From: a virus
Lineage: Duplodnaviria; Caudoviricetes
Strand: one strand, 5' to 3'
Virus record (IMG/VR): IMGVR_UViG_3300031851_000017
Span: 2,054 to 66,053 of that record
Length of the DNA: 64,000 nt
Numbering within the stretch: the first letter of the stretch is position 1; each line of letters opens with the position of its first letter. The translations under genes were made by a program, and so were the position numbers. Below, piece by piece: positions 43,693-64,000 of the stretch. The notes below the pieces were generated by a model that was given only the letters and a program-made list of their open reading frames with translations, was not told the DNA's origin and did no database searches.

Positions 43693-45096
43693 TTAAGCAC
43701 TCTTTAGGTTTGTAATTTTACCTTGTCCCTTGAAGAAAGAACAGCAAGTTTCTCCCATAGTACGGTACATTCCTTGATTTCCAAGTTTACCAACACCGAA
43801 TGGGTTTCCACTAGTAATACCATCTTCGAAGTATTGTGTAGGTTTCATTACAGATAGCCACAAGTGGTCAGTATCTAGAACTAATATATCACTAATTCTG
43901 TTAGATGTGGACTTACCTGTTGACGGCATATCTTTAGCAGGGATGATTGGTATGTCATAGTATGTTGCAACTCTGAAACCAACTTCTTGACCCTTGACAC
44001 CACGAACACCATTATGGGAAGGAACGATTTCTTTCCTATCCATAAATCTCTCTTGTGATTGTAGTAAATCAGAGATTTTCTGAATGGTATCGTATCCTGT
44101 AATCATAACTTTAGGGTTTCCACCGTTAGTACGGATTCTTCTAATCATATCATTAAGAATACTTAGTGTTAGAACCCTACATTCACCTGATGTATAACCT
44201 GCACCGAAATCAACTTCTGCATCTAGGAAAGAAGGAACACCTGTGTAGGTATAATTTCCACTTCCACCGGATGTGTTAACAGTAACAGTTCTAGTTGAAC
44301 CAAAGATAGTAGTAGCATCAGCAAGTTGTGCTGCTGTACCGTTATTTGTTTGGTTGTGATAGAATACGTCATCGTCAGCCATAGTTGCAAGTTCAACCGC
44401 AGATGAAACTATCTTCATTAAAGAAGTATAGTTCTTCTCAATACCTGTTGTACCGTTCTCTGAGTATTTCTCAAGAGGCATAACTAACATTTTACTCTGA
44501 ACTTCTGCGTGTAGTTTACCCATGTCTTCTCTAACGATAGCACGAATATCACCAACACCATCATCAATTGCAGCCATTTCCATTCCTAGTTCTGAGAACT
44601 CGAATAGATGTGCAATAGTCTTAGGGCTAACATATAGTTTAGTATATTCAGGAGCAATTGCTCTGAAACCATCTGCACCACCTAATGTTGCGTTTTCTCC
44701 AACACCACCAATTTGGTCTGCTCTAGGAGTTGCTGCATCTGCTGATGAAATACTAGCGGTAACTGCATTAGTACCTGTACCGAATGCTGCATCACTACCA
44801 CCAATAGGTCGTGATTTCAGAACTCTCCATCCACTAGATGTGTATGGTCTCTTAGCAAGCATTGCTAGAGGGTTTACTTCTTGGTTTAATACAGACCAAA
44901 CTTTCTGTCCGTATAGTAGGTTGTACAAATCACCTAGACCTGCTGCACCCGTAAATGCATTAGCACTAGTATCGTGAGGAGTACCGAAACCACCTACAAC
45001 TCCACCTGCTTTAAGCAAGGCATTGCCGCTTCCTGTTCCGCCGTATCCGTATGTTGCTGCTTCTAAATCTTTCATTGTTTTAATATATCCACTCAT
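43693..45096 (-). CDS. Major capsid protein (HK97 fold)
   Basis: Follows the protease/scaffold; YGQKVWSVLNQE, SGWRV, SPKTIAH, TYYDIPIIP, GMYRTMGE. Confidence 0.88.
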   Translation of the reverse strand: MSGYIKTMKDLEAATYGYGGTGSGNALLKAGGVVGGFGTPHDTSANAFTGAAGLGDLYNLLYGQKVWSVLNQEVNPLAMLAKRPYTSSGWRVLKSRPIGGSDAAFGTGTNAVTASISSADAATPRADQIGGVGENATLGGADGFRAIAPEYTKLYVSPKTIAHLFEFSELGMEMAAIDDGVGDIRAIVREDMGKLHAEVQSKMLVMPLEKYSENGTTGIEKNYTSLMKIVSSAVELATMADDDVFYHNQTNNGTAAQLADATTIFGSTRTVTVNTSGGSGNYTYTGVPSFLDAEVDFGAGYTSGECRVLTLSILNDMIRRIRTNGGNPKVMITGYDTIQKISDLLQSQERFMDRKEIVPSHNGVRGVKGQEVGFRVATYYDIPIIPAKDMPSTGKSTSNRISDILVLDTDHLWLSVMKPTQYFEDGITSGNPFGVGKLGNQGMYRTMGETCCSFFKGQGKITNLKSA

Positions 45097-45108
45097 AATT
45101 TCACTTCC

Positions 45109-46305
45109 TTAATTTCCCCTCACAAGAGAATGTACGTCATCCCAAGTCATATTGGCTGCTGCCTCTAAACTTGTAGGTATTCCTTCCGGTAATGCCATTG
45201 ACATTTCCACACTTTTGCGAATTGTTGCGTCTTTCTCTGATAGAGATTTTCGTAGTAGAGCAAATTCTTTCTTTAGTGCTGCTACATCTGTTCTAGCATC
45301 GTATGATGCGGATTGTGCTGCTGATTTCTTAACTGCAAGTTCTTCTGAAAGTCTTGCTCCAAATTGCTTAGAAAGATTATCGTATGCAATTTTTTCCATC
45401 TGCTCTGCTTTGAATTGTGCATATGCTTTCTCAACATTATCTGCACTTAGGTTAAGAGTACTAAAGTCAGCAGCATCTAAGCCTTCACTCTTTAGTTCAG
45501 TAGGTGGAGTTGTAGGATTACCGTTATCTACAACCAATGTCCCTGCTTCTGATGTTGTATTATCAATATCAAGAGCCTTCATTTCTTCTTCCTCTTCTTC
45601 TTCTTCTTCAGCCTTCATTTCTTCTTCCTCTTCTTCTTCCTCTTCCATAGTAGCCATACTATATTGGGCGGTCTTCGTTACTTCGTCATATTTTTCTTCC
45701 TCTCCGAGTCCGTTAACTTGTTTCATCAAGTCATTCAACTCTTCGAGTGCTTTTTCCAATTTTTCACTCATTGTTTTATCCTCCATTTTTAAAATGTCGA
45801 ATTTTGCTTCGGGATTAATACCCTTTTCACAGATAGTTACTTCATGTAACTCTAATCTGTCTATCTCATTATATTCACCAAACTCATCTGAGGTTCTTTG
45901 TTTCTTAGAAATCGCCTGACCTCCAATACTAAAAGAACGAAGAGTTCCTTTTCTAATACTTCTTGAAATTTCTTTTGCCTTTTCTATGTCATCTCTTAAT
46001 TTAATAACAACATAAAACCCTACATCATCTACACCAGTTTTATGTAAAGTACCATTCATATCTCTATACTTCTCAATAACTTCTCCAACTTGTACATTAG
46101 AATGATTAGACATAACATTTCTATATTTCTTTTCAGACATATATTTTTCAACTGCTTCATCTAATGCCTTTAATGTAATTAAATCATTTTGCTTATCTAC
46201 AATTTCTATTGAAGCATAGCCACCAATAATTAAATCATCAGACTTAAGAATAGTAAACTCATGCTCTTTATCCGCTTTGAATAAAAGAGATGGCTGCATA
46301 AGCAT
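45109..46305 (-). CDS. Prohead protease fused to acidic scaffold domain
   Basis: IIGGYAS...DKQND, catalytic His (MSNH), SFSIGG, EVTICEKGINPEA; C-terminal coiled E-rich region. Confidence 0.92.
   Translation of the reverse strand: MLMQPSLLFKADKEHEFTILKSDDLIIGGYASIEIVDKQNDLITLKALDEAVEKYMSEKKYRNVMSNHSNVQVGEVIEKYRDMNGTLHKTGVDDVGFYVVIKLRDDIEKAKEISRSIRKGTLRSFSIGGQAISKKQRTSDEFGEYNEIDRLELHEVTICEKGINPEAKFDILKMEDKTMSEKLEKALEELNDLMKQVNGLGEEEKYDEVTKTAQYSMATMEEEEEEEEEMKAEEEEEEEEEMKALDIDNTTSEAGTLVVDNGNPTTPPTELKSEGLDAADFSTLNLSADNVEKAYAQFKAEQMEKIAYDNLSKQFGARLSEELAVKKSAAQSASYDARTDVAALKKEFALLRKSLSEKDATIRKSVEMSMALPEGIPTSLEAAANMTWDDVHSLVRGN
45574..45646 (-). repeat. 36-nt tandem repeat encoding (E9-MKA)x2 in the scaffold
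   Basis: agccttcatttcttcttcctcttcttc occurs at 45574 and 45610. Confidence 0.85.
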
Positions 46306-46351
46306 TATTTTTTTGTCTTTTTACTTTTACTATATTAAGTAATCGCTATTT
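46306..46351 (-). promoter_or_regulatory. Putative archaeal TATA-box promoter for the protease-capsid operon
   Basis: Minus-strand TTAATATA (46331-46338) 26-33 nt upstream of the ATG; no SD, consistent with a leaderless mRNA. Confidence 0.5.
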
Positions 46352-48967
46352 TTAATTTGGTAATGTCAAATTAGCATATTTATCTTCTTGTATATTCCAA
46401 ACATCTACTTCATTTCCATCTTTTAACATATCTTGTTTTTTACCCGTCCAAGCAACCCATCTTTTTTTCTCATTTAGAGGCACTACTCTTAGATGTAATC
46501 TAGTCTCAAACTTATCTCCCTCTAATTTGTATTCGTGATAACCGTCTTTTTGTACTCCTAGAATAATATCACCTTTATCTATGACCTTACCTGCAATTAT
46601 TTTTTCTGCTACAATAGCAGGGTATTTTACAGATTTACCAAACAAATTGTATATATCATCAGTATCTCCTATGTCAATTAACCAAGCAAATCTATTTTTT
46701 TTATAGTCTATAATTAAATTAATATTACCATCGTCTTGTCTATTTATAGTAAACTTACCTTTTCTTGAATCTTCTTTTTGAATAATATTTTCATCAGTTT
46801 CCTTTTCTTCTTTATCTTTTTCTATGTAAGATTCATCAACAACAAAAACTTGGGGGTCTTCTTTATCTAAAAATTCAACAGAATCTTGTTGTTTTAACCA
46901 ACCTGTTAATTTTTTAGGATTACCATCAATCCAACCCGCCCATGCTTTATTGTGCTTAGTTTGCACAAATTGAACTATTTCTTCTGAGGTTAATTTTTCA
47001 TTCGGACTATCCGCTATCTCGTTCTTTATCGCTATTCTTAATTCAGACCTACTGTGTTTTATTAATTTAGATATTTCTTCTTTCCATAAATCAATGTTAT
47101 AAAGAGCATTTTTCTCCATTAAATTATCGCCATCAAAACCATAGATAGTAAACCCATCTAAATCTTCCTTTAATATGATTTCAGCAGTACCGTGTATATC
47201 ATCTGTAATGTAATATCCCTTTTTAATTTTTTTAGGTTTAAGTAAATTAGATTCTAACCCACTCATAACTCTAAATGGAGCAGATACAGCAGAACCAATT
47301 AGATTATTTATTGCACTAGATAATGATTTTTTACTTTTAGATGCTAATTTTTCCAAAGTAGCAATATTATCTGATTGTGTTACTTCGGGTATTTCTATCA
47401 CTTTAGCAGAATACAAACTGAATCCATTTTTTTTCTTTGTTACTTCATCAACTTTAACTCTAACAATAGAGCCTATGTCAACATTTATTTTTGTGTTGAG
47501 AGCCTTACCAACTTCTAAATATGCCTTATCTTCATAATCAACAGTTGCATAATTTCTAGAAACTTCTGCCGTAACAGCACCAATACCCATAGTGTAGGAA
47601 TATAAATTGCTTTTTGTTTTTCTTTTATTTAACACAACTACATCTAAATCAACAAACTTCTTCCACTTAACCCATTTTGGGTTTTTCCTATTCCCTATGT
47701 AATAAGTAGATTCAATATCTTTTATAACAACACCTTCTGACGCAGGTAATTTCATAATATCCTTTGAATACTCTTCCACTTCTTTCTTAGAGTCTGCTAT
47801 TCTAGTGTCTTTTTTAGAAGGAAACGCCATCTGTTCAGAAGAATGCTGTGCGTATTGATATAATAAAATATTAATTCTTTCTCTAAGTGGAGAATCTGTT
47901 ATGTCTTTACCTTCATGTACCATGATATCAAAAACGTGTGCTTTCAGACTACCCTTTGTTTTCTTATGAAATACATGAGTAATAGTATCTGCTCTATGAA
48001 GGGGTTCATCACCTAAAAATAACATTAATTCAGCATCTAATATACAATCGCCAAATTGTTTTTTCTCCATATGTTTTACTTGTTCGGGACATTTAGAAGT
48101 AATGTCTTTTTGATTAAATGAATAAATCTTAACTTTACCATTAAACTTGTGTATCTGTATTCTCATCCCGTCATATTTTTCTTGTACTACAAACTCTCCG
48201 GTTAGTCCCTTAATTTCATCTAAATCGTCTATTTCAAAAATACGATACATTGGTTTATTTGGTCTAATAAAATCTATTTCTGCTTTCTCTTCCATTGATT
48301 TAGAAATATCTAATTCTAATAATGCGTCCCAATCTTCATCATCATATTTTTCCAAATAAATATTTTCTAATTTTTTAAATGCTTCTTTACATTTTGTTTC
48401 TATTCTTTCAGTATTGTCATCAGAACTACCATAGTGTTCTATAATGTAAATAGGCACATCTTTGGGTTCTAAATCTAAACCCATATATCCTTGTGTAATT
48501 TCATCGGGTTTCAAACCATGTGCTTTCCAAGACTTTTCGGGTATTGGGTTTGTGTGGGAACGTACTGCATAATGAATAAACGATAATAACACAGATTCAT
48601 TTTCTAAGAGTACTTTAATTACATCATCACCTAACTGTTTAGAAAAAGGGTCGCTAATTTTATCTGACTTAAATCTAAGTTCTTTAACACTATCATAGAT
48701 TTCTTTTGCTTGTCTAGAATTGGGGTCATAGGCTTCGTTAGAAAAAGCAACTTTTTCTTTTAAATAGGTTTTTAATTCTCTAGAAAAATCATCTAAAGAA
48801 TCAAATTGGTCTCTAACTTCTTTGACAGTTTGCTTCCATTTTTCTCCATATTCAGAAGGACTTTCTTTTGCAGAAAGATAAGAATATCTAACTCTTTCAA
48901 AGAAATCTAAAACTCTTTTAGTTAAAGGTGTTTTTTTCTTTTCAAAGAAAAGTCCTGTTTGTGGCAT
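46352..48967 (-). CDS. lig: ATP-dependent DNA ligase with N- and C-terminal extensions
   Basis: Motif I EKYDG, ILDAEL, HVFDI, EGVVIK, WVKWK, OB domain. Confidence 0.9.
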   Translation of the reverse strand: MPQTGLFFEKKKTPLTKRVLDFFERVRYSYLSAKESPSEYGEKWKQTVKEVRDQFDSLDDFSRELKTYLKEKVAFSNEAYDPNSRQAKEIYDSVKELRFKSDKISDPFSKQLGDDVIKVLLENESVLLSFIHYAVRSHTNPIPEKSWKAHGLKPDEITQGYMGLDLEPKDVPIYIIEHYGSSDDNTERIETKCKEAFKKLENIYLEKYDDEDWDALLELDISKSMEEKAEIDFIRPNKPMYRIFEIDDLDEIKGLTGEFVVQEKYDGMRIQIHKFNGKVKIYSFNQKDITSKCPEQVKHMEKKQFGDCILDAELMLFLGDEPLHRADTITHVFHKKTKGSLKAHVFDIMVHEGKDITDSPLRERINILLYQYAQHSSEQMAFPSKKDTRIADSKKEVEEYSKDIMKLPASEGVVIKDIESTYYIGNRKNPKWVKWKKFVDLDVVVLNKRKTKSNLYSYTMGIGAVTAEVSRNYATVDYEDKAYLEVGKALNTKINVDIGSIVRVKVDEVTKKKNGFSLYSAKVIEIPEVTQSDNIATLEKLASKSKKSLSSAINNLIGSAVSAPFRVMSGLESNLLKPKKIKKGYYITDDIHGTAEIILKEDLDGFTIYGFDGDNLMEKNALYNIDLWKEEISKLIKHSRSELRIAIKNEIADSPNEKLTSEEIVQFVQTKHNKAWAGWIDGNPKKLTGWLKQQDSVEFLDKEDPQVFVVDESYIEKDKEEKETDENIIQKEDSRKGKFTINRQDDGNINLIIDYKKNRFAWLIDIGDTDDIYNLFGKSVKYPAIVAEKIIAGKVIDKGDIILGVQKDGYHEYKLEGDKFETRLHLRVVPLNEKKRWVAWTGKKQDMLKDGNEVDVWNIQEDKYANLTLPN

Positions 48968-48977
48968 ACTACCTCAC

Positions 48978-49199
48978 TCAGTTGGAATCTTTCTTTTCTT
49001 TTCCTTCGATGTTACTAGTTTTAGGTAATTGTACTTCTGATGGATTTTTCTTTGGCCTTTTTACTTTAACTTCTTCGCCTGTTAGTGGTTCATCTATTTC
49101 CATTGTATTTACATTAGCCTCTTGTAAAACTTCCTTTGCTTTAGCAATTACTAGTTCTAATAATTTTTCTTTTTTTGTTACTCTTTCCGGCATATTCAA
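48978..49199 (-). CDS. Hypothetical protein (73 aa)
   Basis: In-operon ORF. Confidence 0.6.
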   Translation of the reverse strand: MNMPERVTKKEKLLELVIAKAKEVLQEANVNTMEIDEPLTGEEVKVKRPKKNPSEVQLPKTSNIEGKEKKDSN

Positions 49200-49540
49200 G
49201 CCCCCGCTACTCTATCAAAAGATTGTCCTTCTCTTCTAAAATTTCCATCTATATCCATTTGAAAGTAGATAATATCTTCTCCGTTTTCATCTTTAACATC
49301 AACATACAAACCACCTGCTTTTTCATCGGGGTCAAGACTCAATGATATGTCTAATATTTTTCCTAATCCCTCTAATTCATTACCATCATTAATACTACGT
49401 TGCAACTCCGCTAAATTTTCTTCGGTATAATCGCCTTCATCAAATATATTGTCGTTTAAAAATCTTTCAACTTCTTTTTCTAACATATTAATAAACCCTG
49501 CATCTATTTCGATTCTTTTTAATATATTTTTCCAACTCAT
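49196..49540 (-). CDS. Leader-family protein (MSWKNILK)
   Basis: Start re-assigned to ATG 49540 after GGAGA RBS. Confidence 0.75.
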   Translation of the reverse strand: MSWKNILKRIEIDAGFINMLEKEVERFLNDNIFDEGDYTEENLAELQRSINDGNELEGLGKILDISLSLDPDEKAGGLYVDVKDENGEDIIYFQMDIDGNFRREGQSFDRVAGA

Positions 49541-49542
49541 AT

Positions 49543-49758
49543 CTATCTCTCCATCGTAGTTACTAATTCGTGTATGTCTTCCCAAGCCATACTCTTTTTA
49601 ATAGTATTATTATTTTCCATCATCGGTGAAGGTGATTCAACTACAACTAATCCTGATTTCATAAGTAAATTATCTTTATGATAAACCGCCTCTTCTAAAT
49701 GTTTCACCTTGTTCACTAATTCTTTCAATAACATTAACATTTCATTATCTTCACTCAT
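49543..49758 (-). CDS. Small coiled-coil protein ending in a scaffold-like MAWEDIHELV motif
   Basis: C-terminus resembles the scaffold C-terminus MTWDDVHSLV. Confidence 0.7.
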   Translation of the reverse strand: MSEDNEMLMLLKELVNKVKHLEEAVYHKDNLLMKSGLVVVESPSPMMENNNTIKKSMAWEDIHELVTTMER

Positions 49759-49827
49759 TTTCTTGTAGCCCCCTAATATATTTGGTGAACTCTTTTCTTA
49801 TTAGTCTTTCTAACTCTCCTTTCATAT

Positions 49828-49980
49828 TCATCTCTTACTCACCATCTCATCAACCGCTTGTTTTAAATCATTTATAATTGTTCTAAGTTTAGTTCTAAAA
49901 GCAAGAGGGATTTCCATTGTGCTTATAGTTTCTATAATGGCTTTCAATGTTTGAATTGTTCGTTGGTCGTATTTTGTCAT
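49828..49980 (-). CDS. Small helical protein (50 aa), not in ORF track
   Basis: GGTGATTTAGAATG junction; MTKYDQRTIQTLKAIIETIS...VSKR*. Confidence 0.6.
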   Translation of the reverse strand: MTKYDQRTIQTLKAIIETISTMEIPLAFRTKLRTIINDLKQAVDEMVSKR

Positions 49981-50315
49981 TCTAAATCACCTTTCATAAG
50001 TAGTTCAAATCCTTGTTTTTTTAATTTTTTATATGCTTCTAATGGCTTATTCATAGAAAGCCACATAATCATAGATGCAACTTCTGCATTAACAGTGTTA
50101 CCTTTCAGTTTCATTGTGTATTTGCCTTCATTTGAGTAAGCATCCTCAACAATTTTTTTAAATTCTTCAAACCTCATATGTATTTTGACTTCTTTGTTAC
50201 CATACTTGTCGAACATAGCCTCAAAATTATTTGGTTCATCTTCTTTAGACAATGAAGGGAAATGGCTTTCATCATATCGTTTCATGTCTATTTTTATTAT
50301 ATCTTCCCAACTCAT
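49977..50315 (-). CDS. Leader-family protein (MSWEDIIK)
   Basis: Start re-assigned to ATG 50315 (ATGA overlap, GGGGAG RBS). Confidence 0.75.
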   Translation of the reverse strand: MSWEDIIKIDMKRYDESHFPSLSKEDEPNNFEAMFDKYGNKEVKIHMRFEEFKKIVEDAYSNEGKYTMKLKGNTVNAEVASMIMWLSMNKPLEAYKKLKKQGFELLMKGDLE

Positions 50316-50470
50316 ATTTCTCCCCCACACACAACACAACGGTGTCCATCTCCTTTACCATTTTTACCTTCTATAAAATCCATTTCTTTTCCACAACAAT
50401 GCGGAACTCCATTTTTAATATGAGGCACTTTCTTCCTACGTTCTTCTTTTAGTATATCTTCCCAACTCAT
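50312..50470 (-). CDS. Leader-family Zn-ribbon protein (MSWEDILK, 52 aa), not in ORF track
   Basis: MSWEDILKEERRKKVPHIKNGVPHCCGKEMDFIEGKNGKGDGHRCVVCGGEI*. Confidence 0.75.
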   Translation of the reverse strand: MSWEDILKEERRKKVPHIKNGVPHCCGKEMDFIEGKNGKGDGHRCVVCGGEI

Positions 50471-50483
50471 TTTAAATCACCTT

Positions 50484-51047
50484 TCATTCATTCACTCTCC
50501 TTAATAATCCAGCACTATCAAAGACGAGATGTGCGAAGGGGTATTTATTTTGTAAGTCCTCTAAAGACTCACCATTACTTATCCCTGCTTTAAAGGCAGA
50601 TAGTTCTCTAGAATCTTTGTAATCAGTAAATGGGTTTTCATAATATTGGTCTGTGAAGTCATCCATTAGAGAAACCACTTGTGCATTTTTATTTCCTCTT
50701 TTTGGAGAAGTATAACCATCATCATCCTCATCATCTTTCAATTCAGTATAGACAGATATGATTGATTGATATAAGTCCTCATATTCTTCATCGTCAACCG
50801 AAGTATTTTGATATCGTTTTATGTCTTTTGACAGTCTACTTATCTTATCATTCTTGTCCTTTACATATTCAAGCATCTTTTCACATATGTCGTATAGTTC
50901 TTGGTCAACTTCTAACAGTTCCTCTTTTTTGTAAACATAGGTTTCTTCTAGGCTGTGTAACTTTTGAAGAAGGTCAAACATTTCTTTAGGTAGAATCTTT
51001 TCCTCACCAATTGTCATATATATTTTTATTACGTCAAACCAACTCAT
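50484..51047 (-). CDS. Leader-family acidic protein (MSWFDVIK)
   Basis: 187-aa ORF with the repeat junction at its start. Confidence 0.8.
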   Translation of the reverse strand: MSWFDVIKIYMTIGEEKILPKEMFDLLQKLHSLEETYVYKKEELLEVDQELYDICEKMLEYVKDKNDKISRLSKDIKRYQNTSVDDEEYEDLYQSIISVYTELKDDEDDDGYTSPKRGNKNAQVVSLMDDFTDQYYENPFTDYKDSRELSAFKAGISNGESLEDLQNKYPFAHLVFDSAGLLRRVNE

Positions 51048-51063
51048 TCTAAATCACTCCACA

Positions 51064-51333
51064 TTACCTAATCTGACTTTTATTGATACCTACACCTCTG
51101 ACGGTGAATTTCTCTGTCTCTCTAGGTCTATCTTTTGTTCCCATTAGACATCTAACAAAAATAGGCAGGTCAAAACCAAGAACAGGTTGTGAGGAAGAGG
51201 AATAAATAACGTCGGATTTAACACCAAACTTCTCATCTATCATTTTCATGATATCTTCTAAATTCCCCTCTTCTCCTATCAGTTCCTCTAACTCTGCCAT
51301 TACATCTTTCTTTAGTATATCTTCCCAACTCAT
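51064..51333 (-). CDS. Leader-family protein (MSWEDILK)
   Basis: Start re-assigned to ATG 51333. Confidence 0.75.
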   Translation of the reverse strand: MSWEDILKKDVMAELEELIGEEGNLEDIMKMIDEKFGVKSDVIYSSSSQPVLGFDLPIFVRCLMGTKDRPRETEKFTVRGVGINKSQIR

Positions 51334-51334
51334 T

Positions 51335-51604
51335 TTAATCTCTCCGCATTTCAAATTGCATATCTTCTAAGCGTTGTTCATATTCATTTCTTTCTTCTTG
51401 GGCAGTTTCTTCTCTATCTTTCTGATTCATTACATTACGTGGTTGTTCTTTTCCTGAAGAATTAACCATGTCCTGTATCTCTCTTCGTTCTTTGGTCTTT
51501 TGCCTTTCATTAGTAAAAGAAACCGGACTACCATTTACCTTTCTATTCAGACTTAATTTTTTTCTTGTCGTATTTTTTCTTTTAACAATGTCAAACCAAC
51601 TCAT
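51335..51604 (-). CDS. Leader-family protein (MSWFDIVK), highly charged
   Basis: ORF with a perfect junction repeat at its start. Confidence 0.78.
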   Translation of the reverse strand: MSWFDIVKRKNTTRKKLSLNRKVNGSPVSFTNERQKTKERREIQDMVNSSGKEQPRNVMNQKDREETAQEERNEYEQRLEDMQFEMRRD

Positions 51605-51610
51605 TCTAAA

Positions 51611-51925
51611 TCACCTTCTACCGTAATTCTCAAACACTTCTTCTTCATCATCTAACGCATTTCTTAATTTTACAATATAAGAATAAAAGTCTATATTATC
51701 TAATATTACATATATTTCCTCGGCAACGCTATGAAATAATTCACTTCTTGGTATTTTTTCATAAGTGGCAGGTTCATTTGCTTTAGGTTTACTATCTATG
51801 AACTCTTTTAATATTTTCCTATGTTTATCCATATCCGAACTAAGCCTATTGATGTAGTCGTGTAATTCGTGAGAATAGACTATTTTCTCACTTCTATCTT
51901 TTTTTACTATATCTTCCCAACTCAT
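51611..51925 (-). CDS. Leader-family protein (MSWEDIVK)
   Basis: ORF with a perfect junction repeat at its start. Confidence 0.78.
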   Translation of the reverse strand: MSWEDIVKKDRSEKIVYSHELHDYINRLSSDMDKHRKILKEFIDSKPKANEPATYEKIPRSELFHSVAEEIYVILDNIDFYSYIVKLRNALDDEEEVFENYGRR

Positions 51926-52191
51926 TCTAAATCACCATAATACCCATTTCGGAAACCTTTTCCTTTGTTGAGTAATTCAATCCACGCCATTCTCAAATCA
52001 TCTTCCCTCGTAATTGCATTTGTTAATTGAGTTAGTTTTTCGTCTTGTTGTTCTTTAGGTAACTTCATAATTTCAGTAACATTTGTCAAGACATACTGGG
52101 CATTTTTTATATTATTGCCTACCATGTATCTTGCGAACTCATCTACATCCCTAAACATATATTCTTTCTTTAGTATATCTTTCCAACTCAT
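51922..52191 (-). CDS. Leader-family protein (MSWKDILK)
   Basis: ORF with a perfect junction repeat at its start; ends GDLE. Confidence 0.78.
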   Translation of the reverse strand: MSWKDILKKEYMFRDVDEFARYMVGNNIKNAQYVLTNVTEIMKLPKEQQDEKLTQLTNAITREDDLRMAWIELLNKGKGFRNGYYGDLE

Positions 52192-52514
52192 TCTAAATCA
52201 CCCTTACTTTTTGGATAAACTAAGTCTCGTATTTGACGATACAACGTTTCGTAATCTTTTCTAAGTTCTGCTGCCGATGAAACTATTTCTAGATTCTTTT
52301 CATCAAAGCCCTCGAACTTTTTTTGAAGTCTTTTATCAGACTTAATTAAGTCTAATTTTTTCATCTCATCTAACAGGTCTGAAAGATGTGTCATCTCTTG
52401 ACCCATGTATTCAGTAGGCTGAGTTTTTTGAAGAAGTTTCTTAAGTTTCTTCTTTTGTTTAGAATCAACTTTTTCTAAAATTGAAGGTGATTTTAGTATT
52501 TCCTTCCAACCCAT
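52188..52514 (-). CDS. Leader-family protein (MGWKEILK)
   Basis: Probable ATG at 52514; ends GDLE. Confidence 0.75.
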   Translation of the reverse strand: MGWKEILKSPSILEKVDSKQKKKLKKLLQKTQPTEYMGQEMTHLSDLLDEMKKLDLIKSDKRLQKKFEGFDEKNLEIVSSAAELRKDYETLYRQIRDLVYPKSKGDLE

Positions 52515-52563
52515 ACTCAACCACTTTGTCTATCCGTTCTTATCACTAGTTTATGAAGTTTAT

Positions 52564-54774
52564 TTATTTTAACTGATTACGGTCATTGAACTCAGTATAT
52601 TCATATTCAGATTCATCTGTATCTGTAATATCATTCCCTTTAGGTTCATCTGTTTTATTACTAAGGAAACCATCTACCCTTTTCGCAAAAGTATTAATTT
52701 TATTGGTAATGTTACTGAGTTCTCTTCTAACAGTATTTGCATTCCTTAAAGCAAGAACCGCCCATTTTTGTTTATCTAAATCTGAGTTCTGTTTTACTAA
52801 TTTATTTAAAAAATTACTTTTTAATAACACATAGTTTAGTATTTCAGAATTATTAATTTCGGAAGTGCTATCTTCATCATATTTAGGCAAAGAAGTTTCT
52901 TTCTCTTTAAATTTTTCACCACTTGATTCTTCAATTATTTCAAACTTTAATGCAAAATCTATCCATAACTTTTCAATTTCTTCTTTGTTTTTTCTTAAAA
53001 GATTAAATCTATTTCTTTCAATTGCTCCCATATCGTCTTCCGACCGTTCTCTAGAAATTGTAGTTTTTTGGTCTAAAAATGGGTTATTGGGGTTTTTTGA
53101 TTGGCCTTCAAAATGTTGACTAACGTTCCTATCTACTAATTTTCTTTTACCATCTTTATCTTTTACACTTCCTTTTGGTGTAATAGTTAATTTTTTTTCT
53201 ATTTCTTTAAATACATTTGTTACACTATTAAAAAGATATTTTCTTTTTTCGTTTATTTTCAAGCCCCGTACTTTACTTTCATAATCATCTAAAAGTTCAC
53301 TACTTCCTTCTTGTTCTTCACTACCAGATTCTAATTCTCTTGCAATATTACTTAACATTTGTTTGAACTCACTTACTGAAAATGTCTCTCCCTTAATAGA
53401 AAACGTATTATTACTTAAAGAATCGAAATTGACTTCATCTCTATTTGTAAGTGAAGTAGCGGCTACAAAAACCACACCTAAACTATTAGCAATATCCCTA
53501 TGTTTCTGTAAATCAGAAATATCTCTTCTAGTGTCATTATAAATATTTACTATTGATGGTTTTAAATTAAAACCTTTAGTTTCTAATATAATTTTTGTAA
53601 AATGCAAGACTTCGTGATTTTGTTTTGCTTTTTTCAGAGAAATATTAATTTGATATATCATATTTTGTTTCATTTGTATAGCCTTTTCATCATCAGTATC
53701 AAGAGGACTTAACATTTCAACAATTTCAGTTATTTCGTCTACTAGGTGATTTGTGTCTTCCATTATCTCATATGCAAGGGTTAGTAAATCTTCTTTAGTA
53801 AGTTCAGTTTTATCTGTAACTGCCCCACCAAGAACAGTTAATATACCCTCTATTTGGTCTTTAAAATCCATATCATTCTTATTATCACTATACAAATTCA
53901 TCATTTCTCTAATGTTATTAAAATATTCTTGGGTATCTAAATTTAAATATTCTATTAATCTTTTACTGCCCTTATACGTTTTAATATCATCTTCGACTTC
54001 TATTCCAAGTTTATCGAATATATTATTTAAAATGTCCCTTGACGGTTTATTACCATATATTTTGAATTGGTTTAACCAACCACCTACCTTTGAATAAAAT
54101 GCCCCTTCTTCTACTAACAATTTTCTTAAATTGGGAGAAATGTCCTTTCTGCCTTTGAAAAAATCGTTAATTGAATTATATAAATCAAATATTAATTTAA
54201 CTTCATCATCATTGTCTCTATCAACATCACCATTTTCTAAAATAACCTTAAGTTTTTCTTCTATTTCTTCCGCTTCAGTAGGTAAAGGAGTATCAAGAAC
54301 TTTTTCTATTTTAGTAAAAAAATTAGGTTTTTCTTTTGTTCCAAAAAATAATTTATGTACTTTAGGATATTTCTCTTCGGAATATTTTTTCTTAAGGTAA
54401 TAAATAGCAGATTCTAAATTAAGTAAAGTCCTTATTTCATCTGTCCGTCCAGTAGATTCTAATACAACTTCTGTTAGGTCATCTTTTGTTTTAATGTTTT
54501 TACTCTTTTTCTTTGTAGCAAGTATTTCTGTTGTACCGCCAGCGCCCTCAAAAAGACCATCAAATATTATTTCTTGTCCTAAACCATTTTTTTCATTGGA
54601 TTCTTTTTTCTTATCTTCCCGAACTAAATCATTATATTTTTTTTCTAAAGTCCTTATTTCGTTAATAGTAATATTATGAATCTCTCTTCTATTCTTAAAT
54701 AATACGCTTAATATTTTACCCCAATCTTTTTGTGCCTTCATAATATCTTTTTTTAAAATATCCATAAACGACAC
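52564..54774 (-). CDS. Large helical leader-family protein (MSFMDILK, 736 aa)
   Basis: GTG start; K/E/D/N-rich; shares a 17-aa motif with 36515..40111. Confidence 0.78.
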   Translation of the reverse strand: MSFMDILKKDIMKAQKDWGKILSVLFKNRREIHNITINEIRTLEKKYNDLVREDKKKESNEKNGLGQEIIFDGLFEGAGGTTEILATKKKSKNIKTKDDLTEVVLESTGRTDEIRTLLNLESAIYYLKKKYSEEKYPKVHKLFFGTKEKPNFFTKIEKVLDTPLPTEAEEIEEKLKVILENGDVDRDNDDEVKLIFDLYNSINDFFKGRKDISPNLRKLLVEEGAFYSKVGGWLNQFKIYGNKPSRDILNNIFDKLGIEVEDDIKTYKGSKRLIEYLNLDTQEYFNNIREMMNLYSDNKNDMDFKDQIEGILTVLGGAVTDKTELTKEDLLTLAYEIMEDTNHLVDEITEIVEMLSPLDTDDEKAIQMKQNMIYQINISLKKAKQNHEVLHFTKIILETKGFNLKPSIVNIYNDTRRDISDLQKHRDIANSLGVVFVAATSLTNRDEVNFDSLSNNTFSIKGETFSVSEFKQMLSNIARELESGSEEQEGSSELLDDYESKVRGLKINEKRKYLFNSVTNVFKEIEKKLTITPKGSVKDKDGKRKLVDRNVSQHFEGQSKNPNNPFLDQKTTISRERSEDDMGAIERNRFNLLRKNKEEIEKLWIDFALKFEIIEESSGEKFKEKETSLPKYDEDSTSEINNSEILNYVLLKSNFLNKLVKQNSDLDKQKWAVLALRNANTVRRELSNITNKINTFAKRVDGFLSNKTDEPKGNDITDTDESEYEYTEFNDRNQLK

Positions 54775-54787
54775 AATCTAACCCCCC

Positions 54788-55018
54788 TTAAAATGGTATA
54801 TTTTCACTACGCATATTCTTTCTTTTAGGTGTTATCATAACATCGGGAATATTACTAGGTGCATCATCTGTTTTATTTTTCAATGTTGTACTTGGGTCAA
54901 TCCCTACAACAGAATAGTCCCTACTAATAGTAACATTTTTCTTTTGTTCCGCACCTTCTTTTATTCTCGCTTGTTTTAACTCTCTTTCTAATTGCCTTAC
55001 ACTTTTTTCTTCACTCAT
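54788..55018 (-). CDS. Hypothetical protein (76 aa)
   Basis: GAGGTGA RBS, ATGA overlap with the upstream gene. Confidence 0.65.
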   Translation of the reverse strand: MSEEKSVRQLERELKQARIKEGAEQKKNVTISRDYSVVGIDPSTTLKNKTDDAPSNIPDVMITPKRKNMRSENIPF

Positions 55019-55422
55019 TTTCTTTCACCTCTTGCCTTTTCATTTTTAGCCTTCCATCGTGCTAATAATTCCGCTTCGTTTTCTTCTGTTCTTTTAGCGG
55101 CTTCTGCATCTTGCCCTGTGGAAGTTTTAGTTGCTATTAATTCATTAGCATGATATAATTTAACACTATTTTCATTATGTGGGTTTTCTGTCATTAAAGT
55201 GCCATCGGGCATCTTATGTGTTTTACCTTCCCATAATTTACCATCTTTAGTATAATGTCGAACACCCTGTTCTTTTGTCATTTCATCTAATTCCGGTTCT
55301 AAAAAACTTTTTTCATTTTCTCTTCTTCTAGAAGTTGAGTCTTTGGGGGACTTGTAACCTCTGCCTCGCAATCCTGTTCCCTTTCTTTTGCCCGTTCTTT
55401 TTATTACATTAAACCAACTCAT
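55015..55422 (-). CDS. Leader-family protein (MSWFNVIK) with His-rich HKMPDG module
   Basis: HYTKDGKLWEGKTHKMPDGTLMT...LYH; GGTGA RBS. Confidence 0.75.
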   Translation of the reverse strand: MSWFNVIKRTGKRKGTGLRGRGYKSPKDSTSRRRENEKSFLEPELDEMTKEQGVRHYTKDGKLWEGKTHKMPDGTLMTENPHNENSVKLYHANELIATKTSTGQDAEAAKRTEENEAELLARWKAKNEKARGERK

Positions 55423-55497
55423 TTCTCATCACCTACTATTGGTAAACTCATTCCTACATTCCACACTATTATATCTGAAAATAATCTTAATTTCATC

Positions 55498-55701
55498 TTA
55501 CTCACTTAATTCCGCTTTGACCCAATCGAACTCATCTTCTACATTATATTTACGAAGTTTGGCTTGTATGTTATTCCAACTCGCCCCGAAGTCTAATAGT
55601 TTTTTTGTATATTCTAAAACACTTCGTTTTCGATTACCATAATCTATCCATTTTGGATAAGCAAACGATGGTTCAAATTTTAACATTTCAAACCAAGCCA
55701 T
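55498..55701 (-). CDS. Leader-family protein (MAWFEMLK)
   Basis: Starts immediately after the portal stop. Confidence 0.65.
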   Translation of the reverse strand: MAWFEMLKFEPSFAYPKWIDYGNRKRSVLEYTKKLLDFGASWNNIQAKLRKYNVEDEFDWVKAELSE

Positions 55702-57360
55702 TTAACCTACTCTCCTTTCTGTTCGCTTGTCATTGTTTTCATTACCTGCTTCTCTTGGTAAACCCTTAAATCTTTTATCGGGAGCATTAAACATACTAGG
55801 TTTGTTTCTTTTTTTAGGTGGTTCTGATTTAACCTTTTCGGGAACACCTGCCTCTGCCATTGTTGGTTTATTTCCTTCTGCCATCATTTGACCTAACTGA
55901 CTAGCATCAATATCCGTACCCGCGTAAGGGTCAAGTTCAAACTCATCTCCTTTACCCTGTTGTTTTTCTTTTTCTTCCATAGGTTTATCATAAGTAAACC
56001 TGCCTTCTGAATCCATCTTTACTTCAAATCCTAAGTTCTTTATTGCACCTGCAATATTAACTTCCATCTCTCTTAATCTTAATTTAGCAATTTCATCTTC
56101 TTCCTCTGATGGTGGAAGTTTTAGAACCCAATCTGTTATTCCAAATTCGGTTGTAATAAAAGGAAATACATAATTATTCCAAGTAGTCTGCGCCATTTCT
56201 ACTGCTCTATTAGTAACAAGTATTTGCATACCTTCGTTATTTAATCCACCGCCCGCAGAAGCGTCATTCATAAACACTTTACTTACACCATAAAAAGCAG
56301 AAATTCTATCTCGTAAATCATCTTTTACTGCTACATATTCCATTTCTTTTAGGCTATCCATGAACCTAACCCATTCAACAGAACCCTTTCCTGTTTCAGA
56401 TTCAATTCCCATTACAGGTATGAAGTGTGGGTCTTGTTCCATCTTTTCTTTAACACCACGCCAAAATGATTTCATAGATTCCATATTTCTAGTTTGAACA
56501 GCCAATAATCCCTTCGGCATTCTTGCCTTAGTATATGATGAGTTTACATAATTATCCATTGCGATTAAAGTAGTAACATTATTCCACAATGTAATTATTG
56601 GTGACATACCATATAATCGAGAAGGAGAGTATTTACTAAAATGAACAACTTCCCCTTTGATAAAATACTGTTCCTCCCCATTGACTCTATTAACATAATG
56701 AATCGGGTATAGTTCAGAGTTACACACTTCACAAGTTTCAGTTTCGTGTTCATGCACTCTGTTTCTATGACGCAAACAAACATATCCACCTTTACCTCTC
56801 TCTCCTAATTCGTTAGAATAAATGTGCATAGTAACAGGGTCGCCTCTAAAAACTTCTTTTATTCGGTGCATTCTAACTTTACAATTATTATCTAAATAAT
56901 ATTCCTTAACTGTAACTAAATACGCATCGTCCATTATATTCAAGTCATCTTCTAATTCCTTCAAAACATCTATGAACATTTGGTCTGCTTTATTTACATA
57001 TCCGCCTAAAAACTTTTTAGCATATTCTAATTGTTTAGAATCCGGCTTAATTAAATTAGTAGATTCACAATCACTACACTGTAAAACAGGATTAGAATGT
57101 TCCTTTTCACAGTCGCTACATTTCAAGGCAAACTTTTCTTCCCACTTATATCCCCTCCTAAACACCTCTTGTTTAAGTTGAGTTATACACGTTCTAACAA
57201 TAGTAGATTGCTGCACTATATGATAAATAATAGGACTTGTTAACAAATAAGAATTGTCTCTTTCTTGTATTCCTAAATTAAACACCGTTCTATCTGCGGG
57301 TTTTGGGGTAGTATTTCTAAATAAATTAGTAAATGAAAATCTTCTTTTTTCTTCTACCAT
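55702..57360 (-). CDS. Portal protein with two Zn-ribbon insertions
   Basis: VRTCITQL, DLNIMDDAY, EVVHF...LYGMSPI, PKGLL, RISAFYGVS; follows the terminase. Confidence 0.9.
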   Translation of the reverse strand: MVEEKRRFSFTNLFRNTTPKPADRTVFNLGIQERDNSYLLTSPIIYHIVQQSTIVRTCITQLKQEVFRRGYKWEEKFALKCSDCEKEHSNPVLQCSDCESTNLIKPDSKQLEYAKKFLGGYVNKADQMFIDVLKELEDDLNIMDDAYLVTVKEYYLDNNCKVRMHRIKEVFRGDPVTMHIYSNELGERGKGGYVCLRHRNRVHEHETETCEVCNSELYPIHYVNRVNGEEQYFIKGEVVHFSKYSPSRLYGMSPIITLWNNVTTLIAMDNYVNSSYTKARMPKGLLAVQTRNMESMKSFWRGVKEKMEQDPHFIPVMGIESETGKGSVEWVRFMDSLKEMEYVAVKDDLRDRISAFYGVSKVFMNDASAGGGLNNEGMQILVTNRAVEMAQTTWNNYVFPFITTEFGITDWVLKLPPSEEEDEIAKLRLREMEVNIAGAIKNLGFEVKMDSEGRFTYDKPMEEKEKQQGKGDEFELDPYAGTDIDASQLGQMMAEGNKPTMAEAGVPEKVKSEPPKKRNKPSMFNAPDKRFKGLPREAGNENNDKRTERRVG

Positions 57361-58706
57361 TAAGCAATCACCCCTTCTAATTTATCCATTTCAAACATCT
57401 TACATTTGTCATGTAACTTTACTACGGTAGTAATATCAATACCGTCTTTAGAAAAATCATAGCCAACATGGTCTTTATGATTCTCGTATTTCATTAATTG
57501 AAACAATTCAGTTTTTCTTTCATTATACCATTCTGCTTTTTTATAGGATTTTTTCATTCTTAACAACTCTAATAATATATCTGCGTTTTTTCCTTTCATT
57601 CTAAAATGTGGCCTACATTTAGTTAATAGTTCAACTACATCATCATGGGAATAAAAATTCAACCTGTTAACAGGTCTAGTATCTTGTGGAGATTTTTGGT
57701 CTAAATGTAATCTTCCGCAACCCAATGATTTGTGCATTTCCAACATAAATGCTTTTCCTCTTTCTCCGGTAGCAACAAGTCCCACTCTTGGGTTGAACTT
57801 TTTATCCATAGTAATGTAGCCATCAGAATCAATAAAGGCAGCAGTATAAGCATAAATATCTTTTTTAATATCATCACTAAACTTATAGAAAGCCCCATTG
57901 ACATTAGTAACATTACAAGATATAGCCATCTTAGAAATTATACTAGGTGTAGTTTTATTGAATAATTTTTTTGGTAATCTTTCATGTATCTGTCTTGCAG
58001 ATATACCCGATTGTTCACTAACTAATGAAACAATATTTTGTTTAATGATATCCTTTTTATCAACTGTTTTCATGTGATTTTTAATTAAACGTTTAAATTC
58101 TCTTTTAGATGAAGTCATTTCTTTTGTTAATTTAGAAAACTCTTTATTATAACCGACTAATTTTTTATCTATTTTTGCTTCCCAATATTTACACAAAACA
58201 TCTACCATATTTCTTCTTGTATCTTCATCATTAACGTATGATAACTTAATCAATTGGTCTTCCGTACAAGTCATATCTTGAACTAATGGTTTATATTTAC
58301 TTAACCAATATATATTTTCTATACTATCTTCTAAATGACTGGCATACCCGTCAATTAATCCATCAATTGATTTAGTCATGTTTGTTCTATCTGTACCTTT
58401 TAGAGTTCTACGGTATTTACGCATTTGCTTAATCATTTTTGGTATATCTGAACCTTCCACTTCGTACTTTTTTAATTTATAATCCAAATGTTTTTTAGCA
58501 TCCGTCAAAGACATATTGAACTCTTCTGCAAACCTTTTTTCTAACGTAGAATGGTCTTCTAAAGTACTGGTCTTTAGCCATTTATTTTTTTCCACTTTTA
58601 TAGTAGATAACATCGTTTCTTGTTCTGTTTTTAAAGCGTCTTTTTTTCGCTGTAAAACAGCAAGTGCTTCATATTCTTCAGGGGATAATTCTTTTTCGTC
58701 TGCCAT
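57360..58706 (-). CDS. Protein with helical N-terminus, wHTH and C-terminal LAGLIDADG endonuclease-like domain
   Basis: YAYTAAFIDSDGYI motif; GISARQIHERL HTH-like segment. Confidence 0.8.
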   Translation of the reverse strand: MADEKELSPEEYEALAVLQRKKDALKTEQETMLSTIKVEKNKWLKTSTLEDHSTLEKRFAEEFNMSLTDAKKHLDYKLKKYEVEGSDIPKMIKQMRKYRRTLKGTDRTNMTKSIDGLIDGYASHLEDSIENIYWLSKYKPLVQDMTCTEDQLIKLSYVNDEDTRRNMVDVLCKYWEAKIDKKLVGYNKEFSKLTKEMTSSKREFKRLIKNHMKTVDKKDIIKQNIVSLVSEQSGISARQIHERLPKKLFNKTTPSIISKMAISCNVTNVNGAFYKFSDDIKKDIYAYTAAFIDSDGYITMDKKFNPRVGLVATGERGKAFMLEMHKSLGCGRLHLDQKSPQDTRPVNRLNFYSHDDVVELLTKCRPHFRMKGKNADILLELLRMKKSYKKAEWYNERKTELFQLMKYENHKDHVGYDFSKDGIDITTVVKLHDKCKMFEMDKLEGVIA

Positions 58707-58719
58707 TCGCCCTATCCTC

Positions 58720-62952: not shown

Positions 62953-63999
62953 TTATATCCCCTTACTATTTAACCACTCTAATGGTTTGAATCCTTGTGT
63001 TTTCCCTGTTTTGGTTTTTGGTTTAGAAAGAAGTTTATCATTAGAAACTGTAATCATAGAAATTTTAATTTCATCAAATATTTTCTTTTTAATACTATCG
63101 AAACGTTTCAATAATATTTTTTTAATCATTATAACATCTGCCCTATCTGTTTCATTTTCATCAATTTCTCTATTTTTATTCGTGTCTATTTCATTAAACA
63201 TTTCTCTTAATTCAAAATTGGGTGTTCCTATATTTGAATCTATATTCCTACTGAATTTTATTAATCTTTTATATTCTATTTCTAATTTATATTTCTTTTC
63301 GTTAGGTAAAGTGTCTAATGTCATCATCGGTTCTTCTTCATTGTCTATATTATCTTCGATTGCACCTGTATCTAAGTGAGTTAAATATCTAGTTTTAAAA
63401 TTGTATATTGAACTATTTTTAGTTTGAGTTTTTAAATCTCCCTTAATCCATAATTTATCATTTTTTGGTAGTTTCTTCATCGAGGGTTTTCCTACATCTT
63501 CTTCAAAAGTGGGATACTCACCTATAAATCTTTTAAATTCTCTTGAATTTAAACTTGGAGAAATCTCTTTAGTTTTCGTTTGTAGTGCTTCACGACTTCC
63601 ATCTTTTAACAACTCAAATACTGCTAATATTTTATCTCTTGTATCTTCTTCTAATGTTTCATAAAATACATCTACTTTTAGTGTTGGTAAATCCTCTAAA
63701 TCCTTAAGGATATTGTCAAATGCACTCAATAATATCTTGTCATCATCAACATCGCGGGCTGCTGCCCTAATGTCTGAAATATCATTTAACCAACTTTTCC
63801 ACCCAACTATATTCCATTCTCCGTTTCTCAATCCAACACTACATTTATTCTTAAAATGAAGAAGTAAATTGCTTAATTGTGTTCTATTAGTTTCATTAAA
63901 ACTATTCACTACTTTATCATAATCGTCTTTTCTAGTAGAGTCTTTAAGGGATTCAACAATAAAAAACATTTTTAATTTATATATCAGAGATGCTTTACT
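62953..63999 (-). CDS. Hypothetical protein, probably 5'-truncated by the window edge
   Basis: The frame stays open upstream of ATG 63969 to the end of the window. Confidence 0.7.
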   Translation of the reverse strand, partial: SKASLIYKLKMFFIVESLKDSTRKDDYDKVVNSFNETNRTQLSNLLLHFKNKCSVGLRNGEWNIVGWKSWLNDISDIRAAARDVDDDKILLSAFDNILKDLEDLPTLKVDVFYETLEEDTRDKILAVFELLKDGSREALQTKTKEISPSLNSREFKRFIGEYPTFEEDVGKPSMKKLPKNDKLWIKGDLKTQTKNSSIYNFKTRYLTHLDTGAIEDNIDNEEEPMMTLDTLPNEKKYKLEIEYKRLIKFSRNIDSNIGTPNFELREMFNEIDTNKNREIDENETDRADVIMIKKILLKRFDSIKKKIFDEIKISMITVSNDKLLSKPKTKTGKTQGFKPLEWLNSKGI

Positions 64000-64000
64000 C

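Follow-up and report, generated by a model that had tools for sequence, protein, structure and literature searches.

Short terminal peptides that direct proteins into capsids or capsid-like shells have been described in several systems, with which an eight-residue N-terminal leader shared by twelve genes of a magrovirus is compared here; the genes lie in a 64,000-nucleotide stretch of DNA (hereafter the window; positions 2,054 to 66,053 of IMG/VR record IMGVR_UViG_3300031851_000017). In phage T4, the capsid-targeting sequence (CTS) of the internal proteins is removed by the prohead protease gp21, which cuts after Glu. Terminal peptides bring proteins into the procapsid in HK97-type systems as well, and the prohead proteases of known systems act inside proheads. 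For HK97 itself, Duda, Oh and Hendrix reportedly described a C-terminal capsid-targeting tail of the maturation protease in 2013 (J Mol Biol), and we know of no family of cargo genes copying this tail. Encapsulins are cellular compartments with one or few cargo types. According to excerpts of the respective papers, encapsulation into encapsulins depends on C-terminal targeting peptides (PMC7925596), the T4 CTS is carried by diverse internal proteins (PMC3012670), and an N-terminal signal of about 30 residues in DarB of phage P1 is sufficient to load a reporter into heads, the Dar anti-restriction cargo acting in the next host (PMC9024508).

The magrovirus leader is read here, with a probability of roughly 0.6, as a capsid-targeting tag that would load proteins into the virus head. 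It resembles the T4 CTS in being a short peptide at the N-terminus of proteins that are very diverse and otherwise unrelated, in the position of the carrier genes beside the head genes and in the possible protease site that closes it. It differs from the CTS in that the host is archaeal, the protease is of the S78 (HK97) type and not of the gp21 type, the proposed cut falls after Lys and not after Glu, the tag also occurs at C-termini, its core being that of the tails of the protease and of a scaffold-like protein, and the carriers are far more numerous. With HK97 the system shares a prohead protease of the S78 family whose conserved C-terminal peptide is proposed to bring it into the procapsid, although the magrovirus protease also has a long helical scaffold-like C-terminal domain (in a low-confidence model). 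As in encapsulins, short terminal peptides on unrelated cargo are proposed to direct it into an HK97-fold shell, but this shell is the capsid of a DNA-packaging virus with a dozen or more changing candidate cargo genes. The DarB signal is found on one protein and does not take the form of a shared octapeptide. No description of the tag was found in the literature, supplementary annotations being outside the search, and the excerpts of two magrovirus papers (PMC5434244, PMC11706807) make no mention of an N-terminal motif or leader. No magrovirus virion proteome was found among titles and the opening parts of abstracts.

The leader in the window and in related loci

Between the portal gene (55702-57360) and the ATP-dependent ligase gene (46352-48967), twelve minus-strand open reading frames (ORFs) begin with M-[SAG]-[WF]-x-x-[ILVM]-[ILVM]-K, and a six-frame scan of the whole 64 kb gave no further leader. 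The reversed sequence yielded 0 matches, and 300 mononucleotide shuffles a mean of 0.09 with a maximum of 1. All twelve starts named in the original prediction were recovered on the minus strand at the positions given there. One more sequence resembling the leader, MAWEDIHE at 49590, is no gene start and belongs to the C-terminal tail of a 71-residue ORF (49543-49758). The twelve genes are listed below; the higher coordinate is the first base of the start codon, which is ATG in eleven genes and GTG at 54774, and homologs are counted over 74 other loci with a complete portal-ligase interval.

55498..55701, minus strand: leader gene, MAWFEMLK, 67 residues; homolog in 1 of 74 loci
55015..55422, minus strand: leader gene, MSWFNVIK, 135 residues, very basic (isoelectric point, pI, 9.7); cluster 11, 20 of 74 loci
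52564..54774, minus strand: large leader protein, MSFMDILK, 736 residues, GTG start
52188..52514, minus strand: leader gene, MGWKEILK, 108 residues; cluster 0, 74 of 74 loci, W3 invariant (alignment A2)
51922..52191, minus strand: leader gene, MSWKDILK, 89 residues; homolog in 0 of 74 loci
51611..51925, minus strand: leader gene, MSWEDIVK, 104 residues; homolog in 0 of 74 loci
51335..51604, minus strand: leader gene, MSWFDIVK, 89 residues, basic (pI 9.6); homolog in 3 of 74 loci
51064..51333, minus strand: leader gene, MSWEDILK, 89 residues; homolog in 0 of 74 loci
50484..51047, minus strand: leader gene, MSWFDVIK, 187 residues, acidic (pI 4.5); homolog in 1 of 74 loci
50312..50470, minus strand: leader gene, MSWEDILK, 52 residues, two Cys pairs; homolog in 0 of 74 loci
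49977..50315, minus strand: leader gene, MSWEDIIK, 112 residues; homolog in 0 of 74 loci
49196..49540, minus strand: leader gene, MSWKNILK, 114 residues, acidic (pI 4.1); homolog in 6 of 74 loci

These proteins of 52-736 residues (pI 4.1-9.7) fall into twelve different BLAST clusters, and nothing is conserved from residue 9 in the relatives; the earlier statement that they are unrelated beyond residue 8 holds. Its acidic and basic labels agree with the pI values, but the Zn-ribbon and His-rich labels rest on a reading of the sequence, a match to Zn_ribbon_TiaS (E=0.28) being not significant. No Pfam or PHROG match above the cut-off was obtained for the leader proteins of the window, ten of which were searched together and the 736-residue protein separately, all but the 108-residue protein (52188-52514) being searched again with Pfam. 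The 736-residue protein occupies a conserved slot for a big protein about 2-2.8 kb past the portal start; besides lacking a Pfam or PHROG match, it gave no usable feature match in a protein Atlas search, where its model was poor (predicted local distance difference test, pLDDT, 0.38). The Atlas entry for this protein begins at residue 4, an ATG. The leader was missed by automatic gene calls because the GTG start was skipped, and the tag can thus escape gene callers. Two untagged small proteins also lie inside the array, at 54788-55018 (76 residues, present in 75 of 75 complete intervals) and 48978-49199 (73 residues, present in 73 of 75).

Relatives were collected by way of the portal, which gave 178 related stretches in IMG/VR viral contigs; 80 loci were kept (L001-L080) and form, together with the window, a set of 81 loci (1.5 Mb). 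In this set, 253 tag-initiated ORFs were found on the portal strand and 2 on the opposite strand, and the 240 portal-strand ORFs of at least 40 residues were used for consensus and clustering. The leader consensus is M at position 1, S177 or T50 at 2, W217 or F23 at 3, any residue at 4, D114, N33 or E26 at 5, I169 or V59 at 6, L165, I42 or V30 at 7 and K225 or R15 at 8, positions 3 and 8 having been restricted to W/F and K/R by the search pattern itself. Conservation ends sharply at residue 8, with none from residue 9 onward; in alignment A5 the mean column identity is 3%, and W3 and K8 each reach at least 90%. The 240 proteins form 109 sequence clusters, so that a short N-terminal peptide is shared by unrelated proteins, as in the T4-type CTS. 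In the 81 loci the tag was never found on the portal, TerL, endonuclease, ligase, protease, MCP (major capsid protein), a 930-residue protein or three small conserved proteins. A looser pattern added the variants MNW, MKW, MSF and MDFLDGFL, with no more than 12 tagged genes per locus. Carriers thus number up to 12 per 20-kb locus by the search patterns; inspection by eye of one complete genome gave about 20.

The position of the tagged genes is equally restricted. They lie 1.6-7 kb past the portal start and 8-10 kb before it (the latter being the locus limit), with none beyond the ligase, and two slots hold large, very fast-evolving tagged proteins, one about 2-2.8 kb after the portal start and one about 8.5 kb before it. 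Searched in ten magrovirus records, of which eight had a completeness rating of 100% and the other two of 51% and 70%, the DNA pattern of the tag gave 74 portal-oriented matches, 2 in the opposite orientation and 0 with a reversed-pattern control. In G001, the nearest complete genome (99 kb), all 14 matches lie within 20 kb around TerL and portal, and the tagged genes extend to the strand switch that opens the late block. Tagged genes are therefore limited to the region that begins with the late block and ends at the ligase gene, on both sides of TerL and portal. The array lies between portal and ligase as originally described, but in relatives it also continues upstream of the terminase gene. 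Two further observations concern single contigs. The 184,733-base contig L103, about twice the usual magrovirus length, contains TerL, the 930-residue protein, the endonuclease and 8 leader genes, and may be a concatemer assembly. In L238 (2909-3262 and 3888-4205, minus strand), the leader-like peptides SWFDMLK or SWENMLK follow a Ser or Ile codon, not a start codon, and sit well inside the longest ORF; these ORFs may have a non-canonical start or a fused upstream extension.

Among viral contigs at large, the DNA pattern was found in at least 120 stretches. Of the 120 matches listed, 68 loci had a magrovirus hallmark gene and 52 did not; five of the 52 were followed and all were on contigs with a portal homolog (58-79% identity). 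In cellular genomes (596 Gb), 36 single scattered matches were obtained against about 26 expected by chance under uniform base composition, and a host secretion signal or other cellular signal was rejected because the pattern stands at chance level there; differently coded host proteins are missed, since the pattern fixes the AGT codon. The expectation that the motif would recur near head genes with variable carriers was borne out in magroviruses but not in the halovirus HVTV-1, of which 11 genes, from upstream of the terminase through the protease, are without a shared leader or MSW tail.

Peptide-level selection and turnover of the carriers

Codon usage was analysed for 239 leaders from the 81 loci, with the usage of the same genomes as background. 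All six Leu codons occur at position 7 (CTA 41, TTA 39, TTG 31, CTC 21, CTG 17 and CTT 16), along with Ile and Val codons, and the codons for Asp5, Val6, Ile7 and Val7 fit the background (p 0.4-0.9). Since synonymous codons at positions 5-8 are nearly free, selection on the leader acts at the peptide level. The earlier claim of protein-level conservation in the face of differing DNA is thus confirmed at these positions, codon 2 being an exception with an additional nucleotide bias.

Turnover was evaluated with a looser pattern in 75 loci with a complete portal-ligase interval (the window and 74 others). The interval measures 2.8-6.7 kb and contains 0-12 tagged genes (median 3), the window having both the longest interval and the highest number. 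Of the clusters formed by the tag-bearing ORFs of these intervals, 46 of 74 are confined to a single locus. Five of the twelve leader genes of the window lack a homolog in the 74 loci and another three have just one there, whereas the 108-residue family (52188-52514) is the only leader protein kept in all relatives. The carriers are therefore, in the manner of T4, hypervariable among close relatives and located within the head gene region. RNA-labelled contigs (four runs, three studies) cover several leader genes with no or few differences; because DNA carry-over is possible and contigs cannot rank genes, they are not counted as proof of transcription. In two runs guessed to be RNA, contig depth within 43693-60153 was about 13-28 over MCP and protease and 0-3 over the leader genes, depths that cannot rank genes. 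Three runs with a viral metagenome label contained 25-62% of the words sampled from the stretch.

The C-terminal tails of the protease and a 71-residue protein

The window is from a magrovirus, with the gene order TerL, homing-endonuclease-like gene, portal, leader array, ATP-dependent ligase, S78 prohead protease and MCP. The features beside the leader genes are as follows.

62953..64000, minus strand: large protein, C-terminal part, truncated where window and contig end
58720-60153: TerL
57360-58706: homing-endonuclease-like gene
55702..57360, minus strand: portal (PHROG 18178, E=5.9e-68), bordering the leader array
49543..49758, minus strand: conserved 71-residue protein, leaderless; N-terminal helix, linker and tail MAWEDIHELV (Met57 at 49590)
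46352-48967: ATP-dependent ligase
45109..46305, minus strand: prohead serine protease (Pfam PF04586, Peptidase_S78, E=2.6e-10; PHROG head maturation protease)
43693..45096, minus strand: MCP (Pfam SU10_MCP; PHROG major head protein)

The hexapeptide M[STDEN]W.[DENSQ][IVL], which covers the core of the leader, was located in 512,434 residues of portal-strand ORFs from the relatives. Of its 366 occurrences, 217 start at residue 1, 135 lie in the last 25 residues, 11 stand just behind an alternative start and 3 are internal. The C-terminal occurrences were found to belong to two leaderless families, namely 73 of 77 members of the 71-residue family and 62 of 76 proteases. The 71-residue protein, which is present in 75 of 75 complete intervals, carries the tail motif in 77 of 77 members (73 by the hexapeptide), with the consensus (K)M-D-W-[DE]-D-I-H-K-M-V-E-K, in which Met and Trp are invariant. 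The protease consists of the S78 domain (residues 26-175), an acidic linker, a helical C-terminal domain and the tail MTWDDVHSLVRGN (Met386 at 45150), its consensus being (E)M-S-W-G-D-I-H-N-L-[VA]-R. Looser patterns recovered this motif in 68-70 of 76 proteases and the strict pattern in 62 of 76; in alignment A3, W388 does not vary. Since the tail Ser is encoded by TCA (21), TCT (17), AGT (16), TCG (6) and AGC (2), the protease tail is also conserved at the peptide level. A profile of the 71-residue family matched the protease tail of a different genome with E=0.0067. As in HK97-type systems, the S78 protease gene adjoins the MCP gene, directly upstream of it, and the protease has a conserved C-terminal peptide.

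The AlphaFold2 (AF2) model of the 71-residue protein (pLDDT 71) has helices at residues 3-25, 31-35 and 59-70, the terminal helix starting at the Trp, and linker residues 45-55 are poorly modelled (pLDDT < 50). For the protease, helices were predicted at 288-333, 337-369 and 388-396, the last again starting at the Trp, in a model that gives a secondary-structure outline only (mean pLDDT 51). A long Glu-rich linker at about residues 221-240, between the S78 domain and the helical C-terminal domain, is disordered in this model. The 71-residue protein is a candidate small scaffolding protein. Similar ends were seen in other proteins. Clusters 15, 17, 18 and 29 (L004-L080) end in W-x-[DE]-[IV]-h-[KR] (h, hydrophobic), 20 of 27 members of cluster 15 ending in ...DVWLDIRKQMEEKMQ; another example of a C-terminal tag is ...DFSDWREIIKAV. 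Clusters 17 and 18 have members close to TerL, within a few kb upstream of the portal gene, and a 450-residue ORF (L238, 744-2096, minus strand) ends in ...NWKDILKREMIC.

By family (SU10_MCP, PHROG), the MCP shell is predicted to have the HK97 fold. The closest named relatives of the portal are those of the haloviruses HCTV-5 and HVTV-1, with about 30% identity, and an excerpt of PMC5434244 places a ligase and a LAGLIDADG endonuclease within the structural module of group A and B magroviruses. The final ORF is cut because the source record (66,053 bases) ends where the window ends. As its sole cluster mate, an 822-residue protein of L001, begins with MSWQSVLK, the leader array probably continues past the end of the window.

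Proposed capsid targeting and competing explanations

Because conservation is limited to the termini of the protease, of a scaffold-like protein and of many unrelated neighbours, the best reading of the peptide is that it docks to one partner, common to all of them, in the assembling head. The octapeptide M-[ST]-W-x-[DNE]-[IV]-[LIV]-K would be a portable terminal docking peptide, that is, a capsid-targeting sequence, and its most likely structure is a short amphipathic helix in which W3, I6 and L7 point to the same side. The helix may bind the inside of the assembling procapsid, with MCP as the presumed docking partner, and binding would bring a rapidly changing assortment of soluble proteins into the head. 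The protease and the 71-residue protein must themselves enter the procapsid and could do so by their C-terminal tails (...M-S-W-G-D-I-H-N-L... and ...M-D-W-D-D-I-H-K-M-V...); since the leader has the same core as both tails, it probably uses, and may derive from, the docking helix of the protease and scaffold. The h-h-K end could double as an S78 protease cut site by which the tag is removed. Once the head is assembled, the cargo would remain inside it alongside the DNA and could reach the host during infection. That the tagged proteins bind the capsid interior and are packaged, cleaved and delivered is inferred from the sequence pattern. A complex prediction of MCP (alignment A1) with the 108-residue leader protein (A2), run without controls, gave no answer (score 0.00) and speaks neither for nor against binding. 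The idea of an address tag in the original prediction is supported by the restriction to the portal strand and the head region, the hypervariable carriers, the peptide-level selection and the core common to the tails of the protease and the 71-residue protein. A more elaborate version is plug-and-play delivery, in which the docking helix is copied to new genes and the tagged proteins are packed, trimmed after Lys8 and injected into Poseidoniales, 10-20 per virus, as an arms-race toolkit drawn from hundreds of families; this version is held only tentatively and is somewhat improbable as a whole.

Several observations weigh against the capsid-targeting reading. Many of the tagged genes precede TerL, right at the start of the gene block, a location that would suit early genes too. 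Pfam searches with representatives of the 109 clusters gave DUF1540 twice and three single weak matches, none naming a function, and those with 20 larger leader proteins of relatives gave nothing above the cut-off. As the tagged proteins have no recognisable domains, there is no pointer to effector or anti-defence activity, and this part of the original prediction found no support. At codon 2, Ser is encoded by AGT in 160 of 177 cases (38-48 expected) and by AGC in 0, and a codon 2 ending in C was found in 0 of 239 leaders. In the 81 loci the core is nearly invariant, so that leader and tails show no co-variation there. Between groups they do not co-vary either. In another magrovirus group, record G011 (L239, L242, L244), the leader has 12 residues, M-T-[AP]-F-[DN]-x-A-W-x-L-L-K, with examples reading MTPFNQAWALLK and MTAFNEAWLLLK, and one 150-residue protein ends in ...SEAFDFAWSILKTQ. 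The protease of this group ends in ...GNMSWDEVHNLANSAFRSV (...NMSWDEVHNLA...) and a small protein of 112 residues in ...EMSWEDIHEMAENVKPPLELY (...EMSWEDIHEMA...), so that both keep an MSW-type tail. This counts against strict mimicry and simple co-evolution and, since the leader changes as the tails stay of the MSW type, it weakens the claim of a shared docking site. The Trp and the h-L-K end recur in both leader types. Finally, h-h-K triplets are common in any protein and are found in conserved portal and ligase segments as well; the proposed cleavage site is therefore weakly specified.

The explanation that survives best beside capsid targeting, although it is unlikely, is that the tag docks to another hub shared with the protease and the 71-residue protein, such as the portal, the scaffold core, the packaging motor or a host factor. 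The terminal-only position indicates a shared binding peptide and says nothing of the partner, the tagged genes flank TerL and portal and not MCP, and a G011 leader that differs from the tails could mean two partners. However, a prohead protease and a small helical protein whose genes shortly precede that of MCP have to get into the procapsid. The portal has twelve subunits, and thus few positions at which 10-20 cargo species could bind together with the protease. If the partner were the portal or a scaffold core, cargo would nonetheless be loaded, and this explanation therefore overlaps with the capsid-targeting reading.

It is rather improbable that the leader is a mere removable propeptide, an h-h-K substrate site for the S78 protease that would hold the proteins in an inactive form or label them for processing and has no part in targeting. 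The leader does end in [IV][LIV]K, the h-L-K end is the part common to both leader types, and similar sites are kept in head proteins (the slash marks the possible cut): NALLK29/A in MCP (48 of 48 aligned sequences), ILK21/S and ILK173/M on the two edges of the protease domain (each in 63 of 63) and LMK34/S in the 71-residue protein (62 of 62). Cleavage after Lys8 by the S78 protease is accordingly plausible, though weakly supported. Nevertheless, the best-conserved leader residue is Trp3, five positions ahead of the Lys, the tails share M-x-W-x-D-I and not the h-h-K end, h-h-K triplets are frequent in unrelated conserved proteins and, the protease being active inside proheads, a substrate has to get there first.

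The repeat could also work as DNA or RNA, either as a ribosome-binding or start cassette (coupling, re-initiation) or as a recombination junction for cassette exchange, the peptide being a by-product. Five leader genes of the window have in common GGTGATTTAGA-ATG-AGT-TGG or a near copy, mostly with ATGA stop/start overlaps, AGT at codon 2 is far above expectation and codon 4 prefers GAA and AAA; some constraint on the DNA or mRNA of the start region, or a founder effect, is thus present at codon 2. As a full account this is very unlikely. Upstream of the leaders, what relatives have in common is limited to a G-rich Shine-Dalgarno stretch (-12 to -6), residues 5-8 stay constant despite free synonymous variation of their codons, and the same peptide is found in other codons at the C-termini of two further families. 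A 50-residue ORF, MTKYDQRT... (49828-49980, minus strand), has the same GGTGATTTAGA-ATG junction and no leader, which makes the ribosome-site junction separable from the tag. A role as a cassette junction could exist alongside the peptide role. That the tag is a frozen remnant of one common ancestor gene, now without function, agrees with the AGT dominance at codon 2 but is scarcely credible, since an 8-residue island over 109 clusters that cannot be aligned beyond it, and whose synonymous sites are nearly saturated, needs strong purifying selection.

Most magrovirus genes are unannotated, and magroviruses rank, according to an excerpt of PMC5434244, with the most abundant viruses infecting Marine Group II archaea, themselves abundant in ocean surface waters. 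The prediction is approachable without culture of the host. If it is true, the eight-residue tag would be usable for loading proteins into HK97-fold shells, and a docking helix of the protease or scaffold would be a plausible origin of such tags. The capsid-targeting principle of T4, P1, HK97 and encapsulins would extend to archaeal viruses, and plug-and-play delivery, should it apply, would be the first capsid-targeting and effector-delivery system in an archaeal virus, with the largest cargo repertoire of its kind. For the magroviruses themselves, a virion-internal cargo role would be assigned to about 10-20 orphan genes per genome and to more than 100 orphan families.

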